Shown here piece after piece: positions 3,783 to 30,804 of a stretch of 40,638 nt of DNA (position 1 is its first letter; every line of letters starts with the position of its first letter). The notes beneath the pieces are model-generated. The model was not told the origin of the DNA. It worked only from the letters and a program-made list of their open reading frames with translations, and ran no database searches. Position numbers and translations under genes: made by a program. The stretch lies in the IMG/VR virus record IMGVR_UViG_2778261641_000011; one strand, given 5' to 3'. The stretch is from a virus (Duplodnaviria > Heunggongvirae > Uroviricota > Caudoviricetes).

Positions 3783-4203
3783 GAGTGCTTCTCCTGTTGT
3801 AAAAACAGGAGAAGAGGCGAAATATCACCTGATTCAGAAAAATATTTCAAAGGTTGGTTTGGGAGAAGCGGCAAAACGGAATGTGGGAACAGGGGAAAAT
3901 CAGATACCAGATATGTCTGCATTTCCATCTGGCAAAAACTGGTTTCAGTTACCAAGTGGTCATATTGTCCAAATGTTTTCGATGAATGTTTATGGGGCGG
4001 ACACTAACGGAACTACAGGTAATTTCCCTATTGCATTTCCTTCAGGCGCACTGGCTGTTAGTGCCTTATGGTCAGATGGCACATTAACGGCTGCTCCGAC
4101 CTTTAAACTTATGGGGTACACGACAACAAGGACATCAGTAACCTTAAAAGTATCAACCGGAAATGGTTTGTATGGAACTATGATTATCGCAATAGGAAGA
4201 TAA
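3781..4203 (+). CDS. Alternative tail-fibre C-terminal variable segment (Sv'-like); silent in this orientation
   Basis: ORF in frame across the crossover site, sharing the GLGE codons with the expressed tail fibre. No independent RBS; only the part from ~3857 would be expressed after inversion. Confidence 0.5.
   Translation: MSASPVVKTGEEAKYHLIQKNISKVGLGEAAKRNVGTGENQIPDMSAFPSGKNWFQLPSGHIVQMFSMNVYGADTNGTTGNFPIAFPSGALAVSALWSDGTLTAAPTFKLMGYTTTRTSVTLKVSTGNGLYGTMIIAIGR
3843..3868. other. hix/gix-like 26-bp inversion crossover site (invertase-proximal)
   Basis: atatttcaaaggTTggtttgggagaa. Its reverse complement begins ttctcccaaaccaa, identical over 14-15 bp to the site at 5704-5718. Confidence 0.6.
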
Positions 4204-4204
4204 T

Positions 4205-4648
4205 ATGAATCAATATATTTATTCCCCTTCGGAAAATGCTTTTTATGCTGTTAATTTAAAAAATACTTATGAAGCAAATGGAACATGGCCCGCTGATGCA
4301 TTAGATATTCCTGATGACATTTCTGTAAAATATATGGCGGAACCGCCACAAGGGAAAATCCGAGTTGCAGGGGAACATGGTTTTCCCACATGGGCTGAAA
4401 TACCTCCACCATCACATGAGGAACTTATTGAACAGGCCGAATCAGAGAGGCAATTATTGATTAACCATGCCAACGAATACATGAACAGTAAACAATGGCC
4501 CGGTAAAGCAGCTATTGGTCGTCTGAAAGGTGAGGAACTGGTGCAATATAATTTGTGGCTGGATTATCTGGACGCACTGGAACTGGTCGATATTTCCAGT
4601 GCTCCAGATATTGAATGGCCTACGCCTCCGGCAGTTCAGGCCAGATGA
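4205..4648 (+). CDS. Alternative tail fibre assembly chaperone (U'-like)
   Basis: 147 aa with the typical Tfa N-terminus MNQYIYSPSENAFY and C-terminal region. Convergent with the active Tfa gene, as in the Mu G segment. Confidence 0.7.
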   Translation: MNQYIYSPSENAFYAVNLKNTYEANGTWPADALDIPDDISVKYMAEPPQGKIRVAGEHGFPTWAEIPPPSHEELIEQAESERQLLINHANEYMNSKQWPGKAAIGRLKGEELVQYNLWLDYLDALELVDISSAPDIEWPTPPAVQAR

Positions 4649-5225
4649 CATCCGGTGCGGTGCTGGTATCTGTTGCCGTCACCGCGTCAATGTAATCCAG
4701 CGCAGCGTTAAGTTGGGCGGTTTCTGCCTGCGTCAGATTCCGTCCGGCCTGCAATTTCAGTTGAATCAGACTGATGGAAGCCATTGCTGCATCAATCAGT
4801 GACTGGCGCTGTGCTTCTGCCGCTTCTACTGCGGCACCGTGTTGTGCCTCAGTATCGGTCACCCATTTCTCACCATCCCATTTATCGTATGGCGTTAATG
4901 GGGCGATAATGGTTGTATTTTCAGGGTAATCACCCGGAGCTGTGATTTCTTTGGTATCTCCCGTTTCGGTACTATAGACAACTTCACCGCGATGGTCTGG
5001 CACATATTCCCATGAGTTTAAATCTACAGAACGACAAATTGCATAACCAGCTTTGTTTGAGCCCGGAGCATCTAAACAAGAACATGCCGGGATACCGACG
5101 CCGACAGCGAGATATTCAGTTGATGTAGAAATATATTCCCGCGTTTCACCATCATAATTATAAATGATAATGTCTCCCGCTTTTATGGCAATGAGTTTGC
5201 TATTTAATACAGCTTTATTCATCAT
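4620..5225 (-). CDS. Tail fibre assembly chaperone (U-like, active orientation)
   Basis: 201 aa; ATGA overlap with the tail-fibre stop. C-terminal Tfa-type sequence (DYIDAV...WPELP). Confidence 0.75.
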
Positions 5226-11692: not shown

Positions 11693-13525
11693 CTACCTGA
11701 ACCGCGTATAGCCAACATCATGGCTGACATCAAAACCGCTGGATCGCGTTTCCATAACCCGCATACCCGGAGGCGAATTCACAAAAGAGACCTTGATCTC
11801 ACCATCAACTTTTGGCACAGAAGCTTTGTTAATCATGAAGGGATTCGAGCCTGTGGCATCGGAGGCGTTGTTTGACTGAGCCGGATCCACCGCCGGATAA
11901 GGTGTGTATCCCCGCGCCGGTATTCCCGTCCCATAAGCATCATAAGCACCCGCGCCCCACTGCGCAGAGTTAATGGCATCGACCGTGTCACCGGAACTGT
12001 CGGTAAACCACTCAATAATTGGCTTCAGCTTGTCCCACATATCCTGAAACCACTTAACAACCGGTCCCCAGTTATTGATCACCATCCCCAGCGGCGACCA
12101 GGCAAAAACCTTCTTCAGAAGTTCCCAACCTGCCTCAAAATAAGGACCAATGGTTTCCCAGAGCTTCTTGAAATAAGGTCCGACAACATCCCAGTTAGTG
12201 ATAATTAATCCCGCAGCCAGAGCAATCGCCGTCGCAATCATGCCAATCGGCGTCATCGACATAATCCTGCTGACAATACTGATGGCACTGCCCACGCCCA
12301 TCAATCCCAGTTTCAGAATCGCAAGACCGGCAGCAAGCCCGACGACGCCGCGAATAACCCGGGGATTTTCATCCGCAAACTTCGTGAATTTCTCCCCCAA
12401 CTCCCCCAGCCATTGTGTGATATTTTTAGCGTCACCAGAAAATGCGCCGCCAATAGCCGCAAGGCCGTTAGTTGCGGTCCCTGTCATTGCCTCCCACAGG
12501 TTGGACAGCGTACCAAGCTGTGCCTGAACACGTTTATTCAGGCTGGCCTGTTTATTCATCTTCTGCTGGATCTGATCGTAGCCATCCTTTCCTTTATCGA
12601 TTAGTGCATTGACCACCTGAAGGGTTTCGGCATCATCACCAAATATTGCCTTAAGTACACCTGTTCGCTTAACGTCGGTCAGTTTTCGCAGCTTTGCCAG
12701 TTGCCTGAACATGTTATCAAGACCGCCAAAACTCCCTTTGCCGTCAGTAAAATCGAGCTGTACCCCGAGTCTCTGGCGGGCCATGACTTTATTGACGTCC
12801 CTGATTTTCTTAACGCTTAATCCGGACTGGATAACTTTTCGCAGGGCATTACCTGCCGACTCCCCGTTCATCCCCATCTGATCCATCATGACACTGATGG
12901 GGGCAAGACTCTGTGCAGCCTGAAGACCGTCCTTATTCACCATCTTCAGAACAGAGCTGGTTTTAGTGAAGAATGACAGCATGTTGGTGTCGTCAACGCC
13001 CAGATAAAACGCCTTCTGAATTGTGTCGAACAGCCCCATCATGTCTTCTGAGGCCGTTCCGGTAGCATCCTGCATCTTTGCGGCAAACTCGGCAGCCGCT
13101 TCCGGTGTTTTTTTCAGTTGTACCGCAAGATAAGCTGTCGCTTTACCCACACCACCCAGAATGTTTTCTGCCGGGATCCCCTGACGCACCAGCATCTGCA
13201 TCATGTTCTGGAAATCAGCCGTTGTACCGGGTAGCTGGTTACCCAGGCCAATAGCCAGTTTATTGATGTCCTGAAAGCTCTTTCCAACCTCGCCGTTCGC
13301 ATCCATCATGGCGACTTTCAGCCCGGTGGCGGCGTTTTCCTGATCGGCATAAGATTTCAGGGAAAGCGTCAGACCCGCTGCCAGTCCGCCACCAAGCGCC
13401 AGCCCACCCTGTGACGCTTCTTCCGCCTGGCGTTTAAATCCCCGGATTTTCTTTTGCATTTTCGACAGCGCGGGAGAAAGCCTGTCGACACCGGTGATCA
13501 ACGCCTTAAGCTCAAATTCAGCCAT
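11693..13525 (-). CDS. Tail tape measure protein
   Basis: 610 aa, Ala/Gly-rich coiled-coil-like with hydrophobic segments; lies between the chaperone and baseplate genes. Confidence 0.85.
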   Translation of the reverse strand: MAEFELKALITGVDRLSPALSKMQKKIRGFKRQAEEASQGGLALGGGLAAGLTLSLKSYADQENAATGLKVAMMDANGEVGKSFQDINKLAIGLGNQLPGTTADFQNMMQMLVRQGIPAENILGGVGKATAYLAVQLKKTPEAAAEFAAKMQDATGTASEDMMGLFDTIQKAFYLGVDDTNMLSFFTKTSSVLKMVNKDGLQAAQSLAPISVMMDQMGMNGESAGNALRKVIQSGLSVKKIRDVNKVMARQRLGVQLDFTDGKGSFGGLDNMFRQLAKLRKLTDVKRTGVLKAIFGDDAETLQVVNALIDKGKDGYDQIQQKMNKQASLNKRVQAQLGTLSNLWEAMTGTATNGLAAIGGAFSGDAKNITQWLGELGEKFTKFADENPRVIRGVVGLAAGLAILKLGLMGVGSAISIVSRIMSMTPIGMIATAIALAAGLIITNWDVVGPYFKKLWETIGPYFEAGWELLKKVFAWSPLGMVINNWGPVVKWFQDMWDKLKPIIEWFTDSSGDTVDAINSAQWGAGAYDAYGTGIPARGYTPYPAVDPAQSNNASDATGSNPFMINKASVPKVDGEIKVSFVNSPPGMRVMETRSSGFDVSHDVGYTRFR

Positions 13526-23347: not shown

Positions 23348-23393
23348 GCAGTTGAGAATTATTATCACTAGGCAGTTGAGAATTATTATCACT
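23348..23393. repeat. Two tandem 22-bp direct repeats (gcagttgagaattattatcact) between the HNH and terminase genes; candidate cos/terminase recognition element
   Basis: Exact copies at 23348-23369 and 23372-23393; a flanking GC-rich inverted repeat lies at 23291-23340. Confidence 0.5.
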
Positions 23394-23739
23394 TTAGCCG
23401 TTCACGGGCCGTCTTCGCCTTATGGCACGGCCAGCACAGGCTCTGCAGATTACTGTCTGCATCGGTGCCGCCATGCACTTTAGGGATGATGTGGTCAACG
23501 GTTTTAGCTTCACGCACCACACCGGCACGCAGACATAACTGACACAGGCCTTTGTCACGTTTCAGCACACGCGCACGGATAACGTCCCACTTCGAACCGT
23601 AGCCGCGCTGATGACGGGATTGTCCTGGCTTGTATTGCTTCCAGCCTTCGCTTTTGTGGCTTTCGCAGTAGCCTGACGGGTCTGTCGTGGTATTACGGCA
23701 GCCGCGAACGCGGCAGGCTTTTGGAGTTCGAGGGGGCAT
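23389..23739 (-). CDS. HNH homing-type endonuclease associated with the packaging module
   Basis: 116 aa with Cys-rich zinc motifs and a DHIIPKVHGG...N HNH core. Confidence 0.8.
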   Translation of the reverse strand: MPPRTPKACRVRGCRNTTTDPSGYCESHKSEGWKQYKPGQSRHQRGYGSKWDVIRARVLKRDKGLCQLCLRAGVVREAKTVDHIIPKVHGGTDADSNLQSLCWPCHKAKTARERLK

Positions 23740-24778: not shown

Positions 24779-25114
24779 TTACTCCTTAGAGCCACCAAAT
24801 TTGTTACCGATTACTCGCATTGCAGCCCCACGAATAGCATCGACACCGATCAGCCCCACCCCACCACCAATGGCAACAGAAAGTGATTTAGGCCATCCGA
24901 CATACTCAAGCGCGGATGCAAAGGTCAACGTCAGAGCGCCACATAGCAAAATCTCGAGCGTTTTTCGCTTCCAGCCACCACCACCGCCAAAATAGGCGAT
25001 GCGCAAACCAGCCATAACAATCGACATAATCACTGCGCCCAGCGGCGTATCTCCACGCCACCAGCTCTGAAACAACTCCAGCCAGTCCGGCCAGGTATTT
25101 GGGTTATGAGGCAT
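24779..25114 (-). CDS. Holin
   Basis: About 111 aa from the internal Met (MPHNPNTW..., AGGTGAG RBS); three hydrophobic segments and a charged C-terminus; immediately upstream of the endolysin. Confidence 0.6.
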   Translation of the reverse strand: MPHNPNTWPDWLELFQSWWRGDTPLGAVIMSIVMAGLRIAYFGGGGGWKRKTLEILLCGALTLTFASALEYVGWPKSLSVAIGGGVGLIGVDAIRGAAMRVIGNKFGGSKE

Positions 25115-25158
25115 TTCGTCATCTCTCACCTCGCGATATTTGCGGGTGCTGTGTTGGA

Positions 25159-25185
25159 AATAAAAAGGCCACGCAACGTGGCCAC
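25159..25185 (-). terminator. Intrinsic terminator between the methyltransferase and holin genes
   Basis: Minus-strand hairpin ggccacg-ttg-cgtggcc followed by TTTTTATTT. Confidence 0.55.
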
Positions 25186-25190
25186 CAGAA

Positions 25191-26243
25191 TTATTTCCCC
25201 ACCAGTTCACTTACCTCTTTCACCGTCTGATTAAACCGCTCTGACTCAAGTTCAACACCTAACGCCCGACGCCCCAGCGCCATTGCCGCTTTTATTGTGG
25301 AACCGGATCCCATAAAGAAATCAGCAACCAGATCGCCTTGTCGACTACTGGCACTGATTATTTGCCGGAGCATATCCGCAGGCTTCTCACACGGATGTTT
25401 ACCCGGGTAGAACTGAACGGGTTTATGCGTCCAGACGTCGGTATAAGGCACGGAGACTGATACGGAGAAATAGCGCCGGAGAGATTTAAACTCATCCAGC
25501 AATTCAGAATATTTGCGATTCAGTGAATCATAAGATGCCACCAGCTGGTGGTGTGGTTGTTCCAGTTGTTGTTCCTGAAACTTCTCTGCCGCTATACGGG
25601 AAAACAGTGCCTGTAACTTCCGATAGTCAGCCTCATTCGGCAACTGCCACTGACTGGCACCAAACCAGTGGGAAACCATATTTTTCTTACCTGTGGCTTC
25701 GGCAATTTGTTTTGCCGTTATACCCAGTTCGGCACGAGCATCCCTGAAATACGATATCAGCGGTGCCATTATGTGCTGTTTGAGTTCCCTTTCTTTTGCC
25801 GCATAGCCGTCACTTTTGCCGCGATATGGCCCCTGGTAATGTTCAGCAAACAGAACGCGCTCTGTGGCAGGAAAATATGCGCGCAGACTTTCTTTATTAC
25901 ACCCATTCCAACGTCCGGACGGCTTCGCCCAGATGATATGGTTAAGCACGTTGAAACGTTCACGCATCATGATCTCAATATCAGATGCCAGGCGATGCCC
26001 ACAGAACAGGTAAAGGCTTCCGTCAGGTTTTAACACCCGCCAGAACTGGGCCAGACAGTGGTCCAGCCACTTAAGGTAATCTTCGTCCCCTTTCCACTGA
26101 TTGTCCCAACCGTTAGGTTTCACCTTGAAGTAAGGCGGATCGGTAACAATCAGGTCAATGGAATCATCAGGCAGGGACTGAATAAAATGCAGGCAATCAG
26201 CGTTGATTAAATCAACACTGTTTATTTTTACAGTATTTTTCAT
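25191..26243 (-). CDS. Orphan DNA methyltransferase (N6-adenine or N4-cytosine, beta class)
   Basis: 350 aa with motif IV TDPPY near the N-terminus and AdoMet motif I FFMGSGST near the C-terminus. No restriction endonuclease gene nearby. Confidence 0.85.
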   Translation of the reverse strand: MKNTVKINSVDLINADCLHFIQSLPDDSIDLIVTDPPYFKVKPNGWDNQWKGDEDYLKWLDHCLAQFWRVLKPDGSLYLFCGHRLASDIEIMMRERFNVLNHIIWAKPSGRWNGCNKESLRAYFPATERVLFAEHYQGPYRGKSDGYAAKERELKQHIMAPLISYFRDARAELGITAKQIAEATGKKNMVSHWFGASQWQLPNEADYRKLQALFSRIAAEKFQEQQLEQPHHQLVASYDSLNRKYSELLDEFKSLRRYFSVSVSVPYTDVWTHKPVQFYPGKHPCEKPADMLRQIISASSRQGDLVADFFMGSGSTIKAAMALGRRALGVELESERFNQTVKEVSELVGK

Positions 26244-26393
26244 GGATCAGTAAGCGTAACTCTGGTAGGCTCACTCTGCTTTTGCGCTAAAGCAGTGGGC
26301 CGTGGTTCGCTTGTGACCAGTAAGCATGAGCGAATGGCTGGCAGGTGCTACCAACACCCACCAGCCGCCCATTTTCACAGCAGGAAACCGCTA

Positions 26394-26597
26394 TTACTGG
26401 CAGCGTCTGAATTTATTCCCGTACCCGCCGTTATCCTTCGCCAGACCCGCCAGAACTAACTGAGTCAGTATTAACTGGCACCGGGCTTCGCTTACTCCGG
26501 TAGTTCTCGTCATCATGCGTGGCGTTACCCACTTGTCAGCAGGTAAGAAATGAAGGACTGCGGCGGCGGTTTCTGTCATATCTTGCTGTTTTAGCAT
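26394..26597 (-). CDS. Small putative winged-helix DNA-binding protein
   Basis: 67 aa from the Met with an AAGGGA RBS (track ORF 26394-26621); C-terminal helix-rich region; sits directly upstream of the methyltransferase. Confidence 0.45.
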   Translation of the reverse strand: MLKQQDMTETAAAVLHFLPADKWVTPRMMTRTTGVSEARCQLILTQLVLAGLAKDNGGYGNKFRRCQ

Positions 26598-26723
26598 GTC
26601 TTTTTCCCTTCTGGTTAACATGACATACCAATAACTCTTGTCTAAAAATCCAGCAAGATAAAAAGTCAGTATTCACGACCACCAGCGTGTTTACTGTACT
26701 GCACCAAGTTTACAGGTACAAAA

Positions 26724-26750
26724 AACCCGCTCAGTGGCGGGTTCCTAAAT
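26724..26750 (-). terminator. Intrinsic terminator just downstream of the Q-like gene (tR'-like)
   Basis: Minus-strand hairpin aacccgc-cactga-gcgggtt followed by TTTTTTG. Confidence 0.6.
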
Positions 26751-26789
26751 CTTATCAACGGTAGACATACAAAGCCCATCGTTGGGAAA

Positions 26790-26818
26790 ATCTTATCCAT
26801 ATTTTTTGAAAAATGCAA
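26790..26818 (-). promoter_or_regulatory. Candidate late promoter (PR'-like) between Q and the terminator
   Basis: Minus strand TTGCAT - 17 nt - TAAGAT, about 40 nt upstream of the terminator hairpin. Confidence 0.3.
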
Positions 26819-26849
26819 GCATCATGTCGACATCTTCGGCGAAAACCAT

Positions 26850-27632
26850 TTATCTTGTCACCTTTCTCAATTGTATCTCTGCATATGCTTCTTCCTGCCA
26901 GCACTTTGTAACCAGTTTATCAATGACATCTGCATATCCTTTGTACCACTGATAATCCGTCAGGTCTGGTACCAGCTTCTGGACATGATGCCGCGCCAGT
27001 GTGGTTGGTAAACGGCTAAACCGGTTTCCATTGCAACGCCCACAAATCTTATAAACAGGCGTGCCATGAAGCCGGGTCCTTTTTTCATCCAGGACAATAC
27101 CTTTACCCTTACACCCTCTGCACGCTGTGCTGACTTCTCCCTTACCATGACAATGCTGACATAGTTCCTTCACCCACTCTTCCTTGATAACAGATTCCCC
27201 GCTTCTGGAGTGTTTCACCACTTCGCGCAATACATTATGAAATCCAGTACCAGCACAATGCTCACAGCGAGCCTTACTTGCCGCAGACCTGGAATAATCA
27301 GCAAAGGCAAAATTCACAAGGTAAGGGATGATCTGTAACCGGGTTTCTTCACTCAATTTGTTCAATGTCGGGTTATCCAGTGCCATCGCGTAATTGAGCA
27401 GACCTTCAATCGCAAATTGAGGATCCTGAACACCAACTTTTGCCAGGAATAAGGCAAACCCAAGCGGTGCTTTCGACTGCACCATCCCCTGCGCAGCCAT
27501 CACATCCGTAATCGTTAAACCACCTGAGCCTGTCGCCGGTGCGTCATCGCTCAATTTTGGAGATTTTGGGGAGTAATATTTTGGTAAGGCTTCAAGGTTC
27601 ATGCTCGTTCTCCACTTACGCCAATACGCCAA
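26850..27632 (-). CDS. Putative late-gene antiterminator (Q-like), multi-zinc-ribbon
   Basis: 260 aa with four CxxC pairs (CEHCAGTG, CQHCHGKG, CRGCKGKG, CGRC); located immediately upstream of a promoter-plus-terminator unit preceding the lysis genes. Confidence 0.55.
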   Translation of the reverse strand: MAYWRKWRTSMNLEALPKYYSPKSPKLSDDAPATGSGGLTITDVMAAQGMVQSKAPLGFALFLAKVGVQDPQFAIEGLLNYAMALDNPTLNKLSEETRLQIIPYLVNFAFADYSRSAASKARCEHCAGTGFHNVLREVVKHSRSGESVIKEEWVKELCQHCHGKGEVSTACRGCKGKGIVLDEKRTRLHGTPVYKICGRCNGNRFSRLPTTLARHHVQKLVPDLTDYQWYKGYADVIDKLVTKCWQEEAYAEIQLRKVTR

Positions 27633-28611
27633 TTGCCAGCGCGCGATCGATAAAACGAAATATCAGCTCCAGCTGAGAGCCATACTTCTCTTCAAATGCC
27701 ACGGTATCCGCATGCAGCTCGTCGTGATGCTTTCTGCACAAAGGCAACACAAAGAGGTCATGCGCTTTTGTACCCATTCCACCCTGACCGTGGCCTATCA
27801 GGTGGTGGGGATCATCAGCAGGCTTTCCACAACATGCACACGGCTGCGTCTTAACCCAGCGCGTGTACTTTTCATTAACCCAGCGGCGACGTTTTGGGCG
27901 TAACATAAAAGACTCCGGCGACTCCGGATCCACTTTCAGCGCCAGCACCTTTTTCGCTTTATCCTGGATAATGCTGGTGGCAGGAACCGAAGGCACAAGG
28001 TCACTTTCCCGTGTGACAGACGGCACAACAGGCTTCGGTAATCTCAGTGCCTTACGGGCTGCACTTTCCGGTAAGGCATCCGCCAGGTCATTACGAATCA
28101 GCCACCAGCACAGTTCCGGCATTGTCACAACGTGACTATCATCAAAACCGAGATCCCGACGCACAACAGACAACACCCAACGGGCACAGTTATCCGTTGC
28201 CATTGATTCCAGCCGTTCCGTGAACTGATCGCGCAGCTGGTTATCGCAGTGCCAGCACAGACGGATTGCGCCCGGAGCGTGTCGCATTGTGGTCATGTTC
28301 TCGCTGTGCCAGTCGGAATGAGGCCACTGGCAGCCTTTTTCACGAAGTAACCAGCTTTCAAGACATTCCACGCCACCAGCACGACGGATCACTGCCTCAT
28401 TGCGGAACACGGCCCGAACGGCAGGATCATCCGCCAGCGGTTGTGATGCCGCCGGAACGGCACCACTGGCGAAAGATGAATAACGTTCCGGCTCAGGCTC
28501 CAGCAGGACACGCCCCTGCATAAACAGGGGCATCAGCTCTGAACCTGGCCTGAACAATACGATCCCCATACGCGGGGCAATTTCAGGGGTCAGTAGTGCT
28601 CTCACGGTCAC
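27616..28611 (-). CDS. DUF968-like phage protein with an HNH-like motif
   Basis: 331 aa; C-terminal CACCGKPADDPHHLIGHGQGG...CRKHHDELH; lambdoid nin-region position. Confidence 0.5.
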   Translation of the reverse strand: MTVRALLTPEIAPRMGIVLFRPGSELMPLFMQGRVLLEPEPERYSSFASGAVPAASQPLADDPAVRAVFRNEAVIRRAGGVECLESWLLREKGCQWPHSDWHSENMTTMRHAPGAIRLCWHCDNQLRDQFTERLESMATDNCARWVLSVVRRDLGFDDSHVVTMPELCWWLIRNDLADALPESAARKALRLPKPVVPSVTRESDLVPSVPATSIIQDKAKKVLALKVDPESPESFMLRPKRRRWVNEKYTRWVKTQPCACCGKPADDPHHLIGHGQGGMGTKAHDLFVLPLCRKHHDELHADTVAFEEKYGSQLELIFRFIDRALAIGVLA

Positions 28612-29831: not shown

Positions 29832-30154
29832 ACTTTCAGGTCCCTCTCATGTAACCAGTGGGTTGCACGCAGCCTTGCGTTTTCCTCACCGGCAAGCAGT
29901 GCGCGGATAATCCCGACCGCCTCGCTGTCGTCGTCCTTCACCGCGGTATGAAGCGTTATCCCCCGGGCCACGCCACGCTTTATCGTGATGACGCCTTTTT
30001 TCTCCAGTGCGCGAAGATGCTCCACCGCTGCATTCACTGAACGGTATCCCAGCATGGTTGCCACCTCCTGATTGGTTGGCGGGAAGCCACGTTCTTTCTG
30101 GTAAGAAATCAGCATATCCAGCACCTGCTGCTGGCATTGAGTTAACGTCGTCAT
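29828..30154 (-). CDS. LexA N-terminal DNA-binding-domain-only protein (no S24 peptidase domain)
   Basis: 108 aa; aligns with the LexA N-terminus (LTxxQQxVxDxI...PPTxxEvAxxLGyRSxNAAxEHLxALxKKGVIxIxxGxxRGIxL). Lacks the Ala-Gly site and Ser/Lys catalytic domain. Confidence 0.65.
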   Translation of the reverse strand: MTTLTQCQQQVLDMLISYQKERGFPPTNQEVATMLGYRSVNAAVEHLRALEKKGVITIKRGVARGITLHTAVKDDDSEAVGIIRALLAGEENARLRATHWLHERDLKV

Positions 30155-30804
30155 GCCGCCATCTCCCTGACCAGTTTTTCCGCCTGCTGGCGAACCTGCA
30201 CCAGAAAGGCTTCACCACATGCCTCAAGTTCATCGCGCCCGATGTAGCTGATTGCCGGTCCCTTCCAGGTCTTGTCGAAAACAGCAATAGCACCAGCGAA
30301 GAAAGCTCCTGTCGGCACCTGCTTCTCATCCTTCGGGATAAACCAGGCAGGCAGTTCAAAACCAATACGCCCGCGAATAAAAGCAATATGGTCCGCATCT
30401 TCCGGCCACCACACTTCGCTGGTGGCAGCTTTGATCAGGAAAACATAGCGCCCGCCCTTATCACGCATGGCACTGGCATGTTTCATGATGTAACGCATGC
30501 CGGTGATGTATTGCCCCTCATGCTGACTGGCGCGGCTGTATGGGGGATTACCAAAGGCAGCACCTTTAAGCTCCGCAAGACGTTCTGACCAGTCATGTGC
30601 CAGCGCATTGTCTTCCGCCGTGTAATACGCGGCACATTTGGCGTTATCACCGTCGGTGAACAGATCCAGAACAAACGGGCCAAACAGGGTGTTAATTCCC
30701 CAGAAAATGTTGTCCGGCGTGCGCCACTGATCGCCCACTTCCTTCAGTTCATGGGCTGGTTTGTTCCGCAGTTCCACCAGCGCCTGGCAATATTTATTAC
30801 TCAT
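30151..30804 (-). CDS. Phage Dam-type N6-adenine DNA methyltransferase
   Basis: Start at MSNKYCQ (TAATG coupling with the upstream stop; track ORF extends to 30837). Catalytic GNPPYS motif. Confidence 0.75.
   Translation of the reverse strand: MSNKYCQALVELRNKPAHELKEVGDQWRTPDNIFWGINTLFGPFVLDLFTDGDNAKCAAYYTAEDNALAHDWSERLAELKGAAFGNPPYSRASQHEGQYITGMRYIMKHASAMRDKGGRYVFLIKAATSEVWWPEDADHIAFIRGRIGFELPAWFIPKDEKQVPTGAFFAGAIAVFDKTWKGPAISYIGRDELEACGEAFLVQVRQQAEKLVREMAA

Follow-up and report, generated by a model that had tools for sequence, protein, structure and literature searches.

The stretch of viral DNA analysed here, IMG/VR record IMGVR_UViG_2778261641_000011 (Caudoviricetes; 40,638 nucleotides (nt), referred to as the window), carries between its late antiterminator gene Q and its holin gene a cassette built around an orphan DNA methyltransferase. 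In minus-strand order, Q is followed by a promoter-like site and a terminator, an open reading frame (ORF) for a 67-amino-acid (aa) winged-helix protein, a 350-aa methyltransferase with a DPPY motif, a second terminator, and the holin gene. A first-pass annotation made from the sequence alone had described this arrangement, and its anatomy and coordinates were confirmed, with every element on the minus strand and the promoter the weak one among them. The cassette is already known, being annotated in phage SfV as orf47 and orf48 together with both terminators; the sole new part is a conserved structured RNA leader in the 150 nt between the small ORF and the methyltransferase gene, which the first-pass annotation had treated as spacer.

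The methyltransferase gene (25191..26243, minus strand; orf48 of SfV) encodes a beta-class N6-adenine enzyme that matches PF01555 (E 1.6e-42), with motif IV (DPPY, residues 35-38) preceding the target-recognition domain and motif I (FMGSGS, of the form FxGxG, residues 309-314). It is identical at 282 of 349 residues (81%) to M.EcoGII over the full length, recognition domain included and no domain missing (the M.EcoGII sequence used was machine-read from a supplement and contains a few optical character recognition errors), and 90% identical to Anc291, a reconstructed and tested ancestor. All sequence criteria place it in the M.EcoGII family. It resembles M.EcoGII in length (350 versus 349 aa), beta-class architecture and prophage origin, but belongs to another branch of the family, nearer to Anc291. 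M.EcoGII, a 349-aa beta-class enzyme from a prophage of E. coli O104:H4, methylates adenine regardless of context and can reach 99% of dA; the lysogen does not express it, its constitutive expression harms cells and slows host growth, and its authors propose a role in overcoming host restriction (PMC5778455), which is the leading published hypothesis for the whole family (PMC5778455, PMC12707154). Reconstructed ancestors were all active on DNA and RNA, and M.EcoGII, Anc291 and the enzyme SUPREM act on RNA with no discernible sequence motif (PMC11551740). By this kinship the window enzyme is predicted to be a non-sequence-specific N6-adenine methyltransferase. The first-pass annotation had not recognised the family and expected a new methylated motif, whereas M.EcoGII has no sequence motif; the comparison of lysogen and cured-strain methylomes that it proposed is probably not a useful test, because M.EcoGII is silent in lysogens and a negative result would refute nothing. 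M.EcoGIX was rejected as a homologue, being plasmid-borne and single-strand-specific.

About 135 nt of the gap between the small ORF and the methyltransferase ATG fold into a five-helix RNA (26240-26379, minus strand). P1 (26371-26367 with 26300-26296, UGGGC/GCCCA) closes a junction that contains the hairpins P2 (26366-26355 with 26347-26336) and P3 (26332-26325 with 26315-26308); on the 3' side of this junction stands the hairpin P4 (26295-26289 with 26282-26276), followed by the hairpin P5 (26272-26267 with 26257-26252), which ends 8 nt before the AUG (26243-26241). The fold of the single sequence has a z score of -3.2. Across 59 phage records, conservation of the 150-nt gap is 72-100%, and the gap travels with the methyltransferase even where the small ORF is missing. 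A covariance model of the leader finds 71 loci, on the sense strand only (27-156 bits; antisense scores do not exceed 21 bits), ranging from Escherichia to Proteus, Providencia, Serratia, Vibrio and Gilliamella.

The base pairs of the leader covary. When 69 sequences are aligned by MAFFT without regard to structure, compensatory changes appear in 17 pairs, against 11.1 +/- 1.3 in shuffles, and changes on both sides of a pair occur in 90 cells, against 36 in shuffles; sliding the 3' partner by one to three columns leaves at most 10 such pairs. The alignment fitted to the covariance model leans towards the structure by construction, the model having been built from the MAFFT alignment; in it, compensatory changes are found in 31 of the 38 pairs and both-side changes in 149 cells against 46, a level that none of 500 shuffles reaches, and the slid controls give at most 17 pairs. 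The two innermost pairs of P2 were scored as unpaired in both counts, the seed register being off at this point and most sequences having a one-base bulge.

No Rfam 15 model reaches its gathering score in the window, and none matches the leader region or five divergent loci at E <= 1; ARAGORN found no transfer RNA (tRNA) in the gap. Literature searches returned no description of the leader, nor of Q-dependent expression of M.EcoGII, which is not proof of absence. The association with one enzyme family is close: of 121 matches to a P1/P2 pattern in IMG/VR, 114 are followed at a fixed distance of 90-93 nt by an M.EcoGII-like gene, while three lie at contig ends, two are chance occurrences in coding DNA, one precedes an internally deleted methyltransferase, and one is a truncated leader. 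The last two are decayed copies: at locus L115 the leader starts at about 2145 and only the last 62 aa of the methyltransferase are left, and at L161 the leader (about 13161-13200, minus strand) is cut after P3 by unrelated AT-rich DNA. A gene of an Escherichia albertii prophage (L022) that is 96% identical to M.EcoGII has the same winged-helix ORF and leader upstream, and the native M.EcoGII gene therefore almost certainly carries the leader too.

The methyltransferase start in the window is without a Shine-Dalgarno (SD) sequence (GCUUACUGAUCCAUG, 26241-26260, minus strand), and among 65 enterobacterial leaders just 14 have an SD-like 4-mer ahead of the ATG. The ATG is preceded by a GATC (Dam) site, at 1 nt in the window and 2 nt in most relatives, which nearly every enterobacterial copy conserves. 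A candidate pseudoknot that would join the P3 loop, G(G/A)UCA, to the UGAUC ahead of the AUG is not supported, for the two segments are nearly invariant but their pairing is lost in Hafnia and in locus L042.

The small ORF (orf47 of SfV, PHROG 331) is open over 26394-26621, which would give 75 aa; the start at 26597, preceded by AAGGGA, gives the 67-aa protein (26394..26597, minus strand), whose N-terminus, MLKQQDMTE, is common to the homologues. The first-pass annotation had called it a putative DNA-binding winged helix-turn-helix protein, and an AlphaFold2 model from a 26-sequence alignment supports the winged helix: with a pLDDT (predicted local distance difference test) of 86.7, it consists of helix H1, a strand, helices H2 and H3, and a beta-hairpin wing, so that the protein is predicted to be a minimal winged helix. 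The best Foldseek matches in the PDB are to the Z-alpha domain of ADAR1 (template modelling score 0.84-0.85, root-mean-square deviation 1.1-1.3 Å, but E 2e-3 and 15% identity), lower matches include TrmBL2, IclR, MarR and eS25, and relatives at about 50% identity are named 'TrmB family regulator' by NCBI. The contact residues of Z-alpha are N173 and Y177 in helix 3 and W195 in the wing of ADAR1. A Z-alpha identity was rejected because the fold fits but these residues do not, helix 3 (RCQLILTQL) having Cys and Leu at the Asn and Tyr positions in a manual register. A restriction-modification controller (C) protein was also rejected, as there is no Pfam or NCBIfam match and the predicted fold is a winged helix, not the five-helix fold of the HTH_XRE type. 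The protein has no match in Pfam, NCBIfam or PADLOC, and PHROG 331 carries no assigned function.

The winged-helix ORF stands about 15 nt upstream of the leader in about 45 of 63 enterobacterial loci. Elsewhere (about 700 nt upstream of the leader) it is replaced by a 220-aa membrane protein, a 79-aa zinc-ribbon protein or other unrelated ORFs (L012, L013, L017-L019, L023, L026, L027, L029 and L030; also L036, L037, L048, L055, L056, L059, L061, L071 and L072). The real variable-cargo position is this slot between the terminator of Q and the leader, rather than the methyltransferase. In Vibrio, the leaders have ORFs of 82-113 aa upstream (L076 1708-2049, L077 1791-2087, L078 1731-1979 and L087 1711-1968), in which an 'EQLxxxG' helix resembles helix 3 of the winged-helix protein; homology between the two is not established, the hhalign probability being only 7.7%.

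The cassette is widespread. Matches to the 1.8-kb segment occur in 42 phage records and in 1928 of 5426 complete E. coli genomes, at least 80% of it being covered in 995 of the genomes. At 97-99% nucleotide identity to the window cassette are those of SfV, mEp460, Ayreon, cdtI and vB_EcoM-720R4. The SfV group shares with the window the order Q, terminator, small ORF, methyltransferase, terminator and S, whereas in mEp460 and Ayreon Q and the small ORF are separated by an extra ORF and terminator. This extra ORF, of 141 aa with a terminator of its own, is present in Ayreon (L002 3806-4416), in mEp460 and in an Stx2c phage (L003 6577-7002); one mEp460 record lists 'porin' under the match, possibly the 141-aa ORF. 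Phage cdtI and others have a different Q and holin, and their homology to the window extends only from about 25127 to 26743. As the homology ends at both terminators in phages with another Q and holin, the block from terminator to terminator behaves as a module, and the cassette order recurs with at least three unrelated types of Q and several types of holin.

The first-pass annotation took the locus for the equivalent of the stx locus. In several Stx2a and several Stx2d phages, and in Stx2c, Stx2e (phiP27 L23-L24), 1720a-02 and Stx2_EH2201 phages, the small ORF, leader and methyltransferase lie immediately downstream of Q, and tRNA genes and stxAB follow the methyltransferase, whereas in the window it is followed by a terminator and then the holin gene. 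The Stx2 phages thus carry the cassette with stx downstream of it and not in its place: lying between Q and the tRNA-stx segment, it is the upstream neighbour of the toxin slot and not its occupant. In the window the stx slot is empty, with 76 nt, terminator included. Sp5 of strain Sakai was rejected as a comparator, this 933W-type Stx2 phage lacking the cassette and having no methyltransferase between Q and stx2. At the position that stx occupies in Stx phages, the E. albertii prophage L022 has two full copies of the small RNA (sRNA) STnc100 (138 and 132 bits) and one weaker copy (4026-4683), past two tRNA genes and downstream of the M.EcoGII-like methyltransferase.

Nor does the designation of the cassette as a moron fit well. 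Of the features of a classic (Hendrix-type) moron, the downstream terminator is present, but not a promoter of its own or a deviant composition. A scan found a single weak sigma-70-like site on the minus strand (9/12), which falls within the small ORF; ahead of the cassette it found none. The GC content is 0.48 in the methyltransferase gene and 0.52 in the small ORF, against 0.50 in the window. With no convincing promoter and a normal GC content, the genes appear to be Q-dependent late-operon cargo rather than a classic moron.

The pR'-like late promoter region (26790..26830, minus strand) offers only candidate hexamers, TCGACA-18-AAAAAT at 26830-26801 (9/12 in a consensus scan) and TTGCAT-17-TAAGAT at 26818-26790 (7/12, read by eye), and promoter-like sites are not enriched in the region (5, against 4.6 expected from shuffles). 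The sequence GATAAGAT occurs twice on the minus strand, at 26798-26791, as the putative -10 element of the late promoter, and about 40 nt downstream at 26756-26749, just ahead of the terminator; speculatively, the second copy could act in Q loading as a -10-like pause element. The first intrinsic terminator (tR'-like; 26720..26746, minus strand) is a hairpin, ACCCGC-CACUGA-GCGGGU, followed by U6 (-13.5 kcal/mol, z -2.0). It was absent from the output of an automated terminator scan, and the SfV and Ayreon records annotate a rho-independent terminator that corresponds to it. A stretch on the plus strand (26616-26752), antisense to this terminator and to the 5' end of the small ORF, matches the Salmonella sRNA candidate STnc130 below threshold (27.7 bits against a gathering score of 55, E 0.15). 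The second intrinsic terminator (25157..25183, minus strand), GGCCACG-TTG-CGTGGCC followed by TTTTTATTT, was found by the scan and by fold energy (-19.1 kcal/mol, z -3.2); its stem (25183-25167) has seven pairs, six of them GC, it lies 8 nt past the methyltransferase stop and about 45 nt ahead of the holin ATG (25114), and it is also annotated in the SfV and Ayreon records. Two terminators therefore flank the pair of genes, as the first-pass annotation had it.

In phage Mu, Com activates translation of mom, the other classic case of a toxic DNA-modification gene kept silent in lysogens. Distant relatives of the window cassette have Com-like ORFs. Four Vibrio loci have, right against the 3' end of the leader, the SD-less ATG of an ORF of 36-42 aa for a CxxC...CxxC zinc ribbon (L076 2334-2462, L077 2362-2487, L078 2331-2441 and L087 2335-2445), and the methyltransferase gene comes next with a canonical GGAGG; in Vibrio ichthyoenteri and Shewanella loci (L088 from 2365 and L092 from 2368), where the leader was not detected, zinc-ribbon ORFs of 53-55 aa precede the methyltransferase. 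Five of the six ORFs were scanned against Pfam and all match PF10122, the zinc ribbon of Mu Com: that of L078 (24.6 bits) and that of the leaderless Shewanella locus L092 (33.3 bits) pass the cut-off of 22.9, and the other three fall below it. There is no CxxC...CxxC ORF in the window.

The leader thus behaves as a module ahead of whichever ORF comes first in the methyltransferase unit, and distant members of the family have, to judge by these matches, independently acquired a known translational activator. Together these two points make post-transcriptional control the most economical reading of the leader, and by analogy the Com-like ORFs of the Vibrio and Shewanella relatives suggest translational control like that of mom. 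The cassette shares with com-mom a DNA-modifying enzyme that is, or by analogy with M.EcoGII would be, toxic, silent in the lysogen and made late, and its control appears to be post-transcriptional, as that of mom is, through structured mRNA just upstream of the enzyme start. Unlike Mu, the window has no Com, its enzyme is unrelated to Mom, and the leader has no known relation to the translation-inhibition stem of mom; any likeness is one of logic only and not of family membership. Since the leader is constant where the winged-helix ORF is absent, a Com-like partnership of the 67-aa protein with the RNA is unlikely; the protein would be a frequent but dispensable companion of the leader-methyltransferase unit, and may be a nucleic-acid-binding regulator.

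We regard the cassette, with a probability of roughly 0.7, as standard late-operon cargo of SfV-like and lambdoid prophages that encodes a non-specific methyltransferase of the M.EcoGII type and works as follows. In the lysogen, the cassette would have no promoter of its own and transcripts from the late promoter would stop at 26720-26746, so that the toxic enzyme is not made. Upon induction, RNA polymerase modified by Q would pass the first terminator, transcribe the winged-helix ORF, the leader and the methyltransferase gene, and then pass the terminator at 25157-25183 into the lysis and morphogenesis genes. The methyltransferase would modify adenines of the replicating phage DNA in any context, and the progeny DNA would resist many m6A-sensitive restriction systems of types I, II and III in the next host. 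The five-helix RNA, which abuts a start that mostly lacks an SD sequence, would most likely gate or tune translation of the methyltransferase in a manner analogous, not homologous, to the Com-dependent translation of mom, with the winged-helix protein as its frequent, dispensable companion and perhaps a nucleic-acid-binding regulator. Of the two roles that the first-pass annotation had suggested, the anti-restriction role agrees with the published hypothesis for the family, whereas an epigenetic role in the lysogen does not hold, the relatives being non-specific and M.EcoGII silent in lysogens. A fuller version of the part assigned to the leader is tentative and held at somewhat less than even odds: the leader would be an undescribed class of cis-regulatory RNA that gates SD-independent translation of a dangerously promiscuous methyltransferase, or in the Vibrio relatives of a Com-like activator, maybe with a response to a trans-acting factor or to S-adenosylmethionine or S-adenosylhomocysteine, and would provide a mom-like second lock beyond Q.

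Several points weigh against this account. The late promoter would depend on weak hexamers; of about 63 enterobacterial loci with an unchanged leader, about 18 lack the winged-helix ORF; no evidence was found that the leader occludes the start codon, its function being deduced from position and conservation; and at 81% identity the sequence specificity of the enzyme could differ from that of M.EcoGII. The biological function of M.EcoGII has been stated to be unknown (PMC11551740), protection of phage DNA in vivo by enzymes of this family is so far a proposal, and hypermethylated DNA would itself be a target of m6A-dependent type IV nucleases.

Other accounts of the enzyme fare worse. PF01555 enzymes are usually site-specific (M.RsrI, M.MboII and CcrM being structural relatives), and orphan prophage methyltransferases with regulatory roles exist, such as Dam homologues, so that the window enzyme could be sequence-specific and active in the lysogen, either in epigenetic regulation or as a 'vaccine' against a single restriction system; we consider this very unlikely, because the two enzymes to which it is 81% and 90% identical were shown to be non-specific, identity to M.EcoGII is no more than about 27% in the nearest site-specific relative, M.PflMI, single-molecule real-time (SMRT) sequencing of E. 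coli lysogens with M.EcoGI and M.EcoGII homologues assigned these no motif and judged them inactive under the conditions tested, and no promoter for expression in the lysogen was detected. It is also unlikely, though less so, that the main target in vivo is RNA or host DNA, with late m6A on transcripts or the chromosome serving host takeover and not anti-restriction. M.EcoGII methylates single-stranded RNA, DNA:RNA hybrids and single-stranded DNA, slows host growth when expressed constitutively, and is an enzyme whose role is formally open (PMC11551740); against this, DNA activity exceeds RNA activity, RNA activity varies among the ancestors as if neutral (PMC11551740), and expression would start with the lysis genes, leaving little time for reprogramming of the host.

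With respect to the leader, an appreciable minority share of the probability, still short of that given to the cis-acting translational class, goes to its being a trans-acting or processed sRNA, an element for mRNA processing or stability, or a processive antitermination RNA of the put or EAR kind that would help the late transcript past downstream terminators. It is highly structured and lies, with a terminator on either side, in the early part of a very long late operon, and the lack of direct evidence for start-codon occlusion also leaves room for such functions; yet its spacing to the methyltransferase ATG stays fixed when Q, the lysis cassette or the upstream cargo differs, it is equally tight against the SD-less ATG of the next ORF in the four Vibrio loci, and an antitermination function would be added to phages that already have Q. 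It is extremely improbable that what is conserved is not an RNA structure but a short coding sequence on one strand or the other, or an operator in the DNA for binding of the winged-helix protein. In the window, a frame of 33 codons (MGGWWVL...) begins at an invariant ATG in P1, the antisense strand has ORFs of 45-54 aa, and the outer arms, GGCTGG...CCAGCC, look like an inverted repeat. The stop positions of the frame from the invariant ATG, which was considered as an upstream ORF and rejected, are not conserved but scatter from -118 to +47 nt relative to the methyltransferase ATG; single-base indels throughout the leader rule out coding on either strand; pairs are kept by G-U wobble and compensatory changes on one strand only, and antisense model scores stay at or below 21 bits; the spacing of the repeat varies while its pairing is preserved; and the leader is unchanged at loci without the winged-helix gene. 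A cis-acting role of the leader in translation of the methyltransferase remains the preferred reading.

The genes that border the cassette are typical of such phages. The late antiterminator gene Q (26850..27602, minus strand) encodes a protein with a DnaJ-like CxxCxGxG zinc finger that matches PF03589 (E 1e-53) and PHROG 127 (E 2e-108); its frame is open from 27632 (ORF 26850-27632), with 27602 the probable start and the PHROG match beginning at residue 11, and its homologues are labelled Q in SfV and ydfT or antitermination protein in RefSeq. Downstream, the lambda-family holin gene S (24779..25114, minus strand; PF05106, E 6e-27) opens the lysis cassette and marks the downstream edge of the slot; S of SfV is of equal length, and the lysozyme gene comes after the holin gene in the window. 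The cognate endonuclease that the first-pass annotation had allowed for is not there: no endonuclease partner of the methyltransferase was found in the window in the ORF list or by Pfam or PADLOC searches, and no extra ORF lies between Q and the holin gene. The methyltransferase thus lacks the adjacent cognate endonuclease of a type II restriction-modification system, the neighbours being Q and a DUF968/YdfU gene, and PADLOC matches of the cassette proteins are nearly all to MTase_II or orphan-methyltransferase models, with one weak match to mad2. The DUF968/HNHc_6 (YdfU-like) gene (27616-28611, minus strand) is the one next upstream of Q, and an HNH endonuclease of 116 aa (23389-23739, minus strand) is encoded beside the small terminase subunit; these are common lambdoid or HK97-like genes and not restriction partners of the methyltransferase. 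The second methyltransferase that had been noted in the prophage, the phage Dam-like enzyme at 30151-30804, was confirmed by PF05869 and TIGR01712 (E 1.7e-76). Phage Dam-type enzymes (those of T1, T4 and P1 and that of the window) resemble the cassette enzyme in being orphan adenine methyltransferases without an endonuclease, but form a separate family, are GATC-specific where characterised, and are encoded in the early or nin region and not in the late operon.

Nothing about the cassette itself is out of the ordinary. M.EcoGII-type enzymes, commercial products in wide use for chromatin footprinting, have it as their native setting, and about a third of complete E. coli genomes contain it. Methylomes of lysogens will not reveal its methyltransferase, for which induced cultures or virion DNA will be needed. 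In many Stx2 phages the cassette stands directly upstream of stx, so that control of its passage and translation lies on the path to toxin expression. The value of further work may lie in the leader at 26240-26379 and its possible mom-like control logic. If functional, the leader would be a new class of structured RNA that accompanies a single enzyme family in Enterobacterales, Vibrio and Gilliamella, which could explain the tight post-transcriptional control of a toxic non-specific methyltransferase and would be a compact, testable regulatory part.

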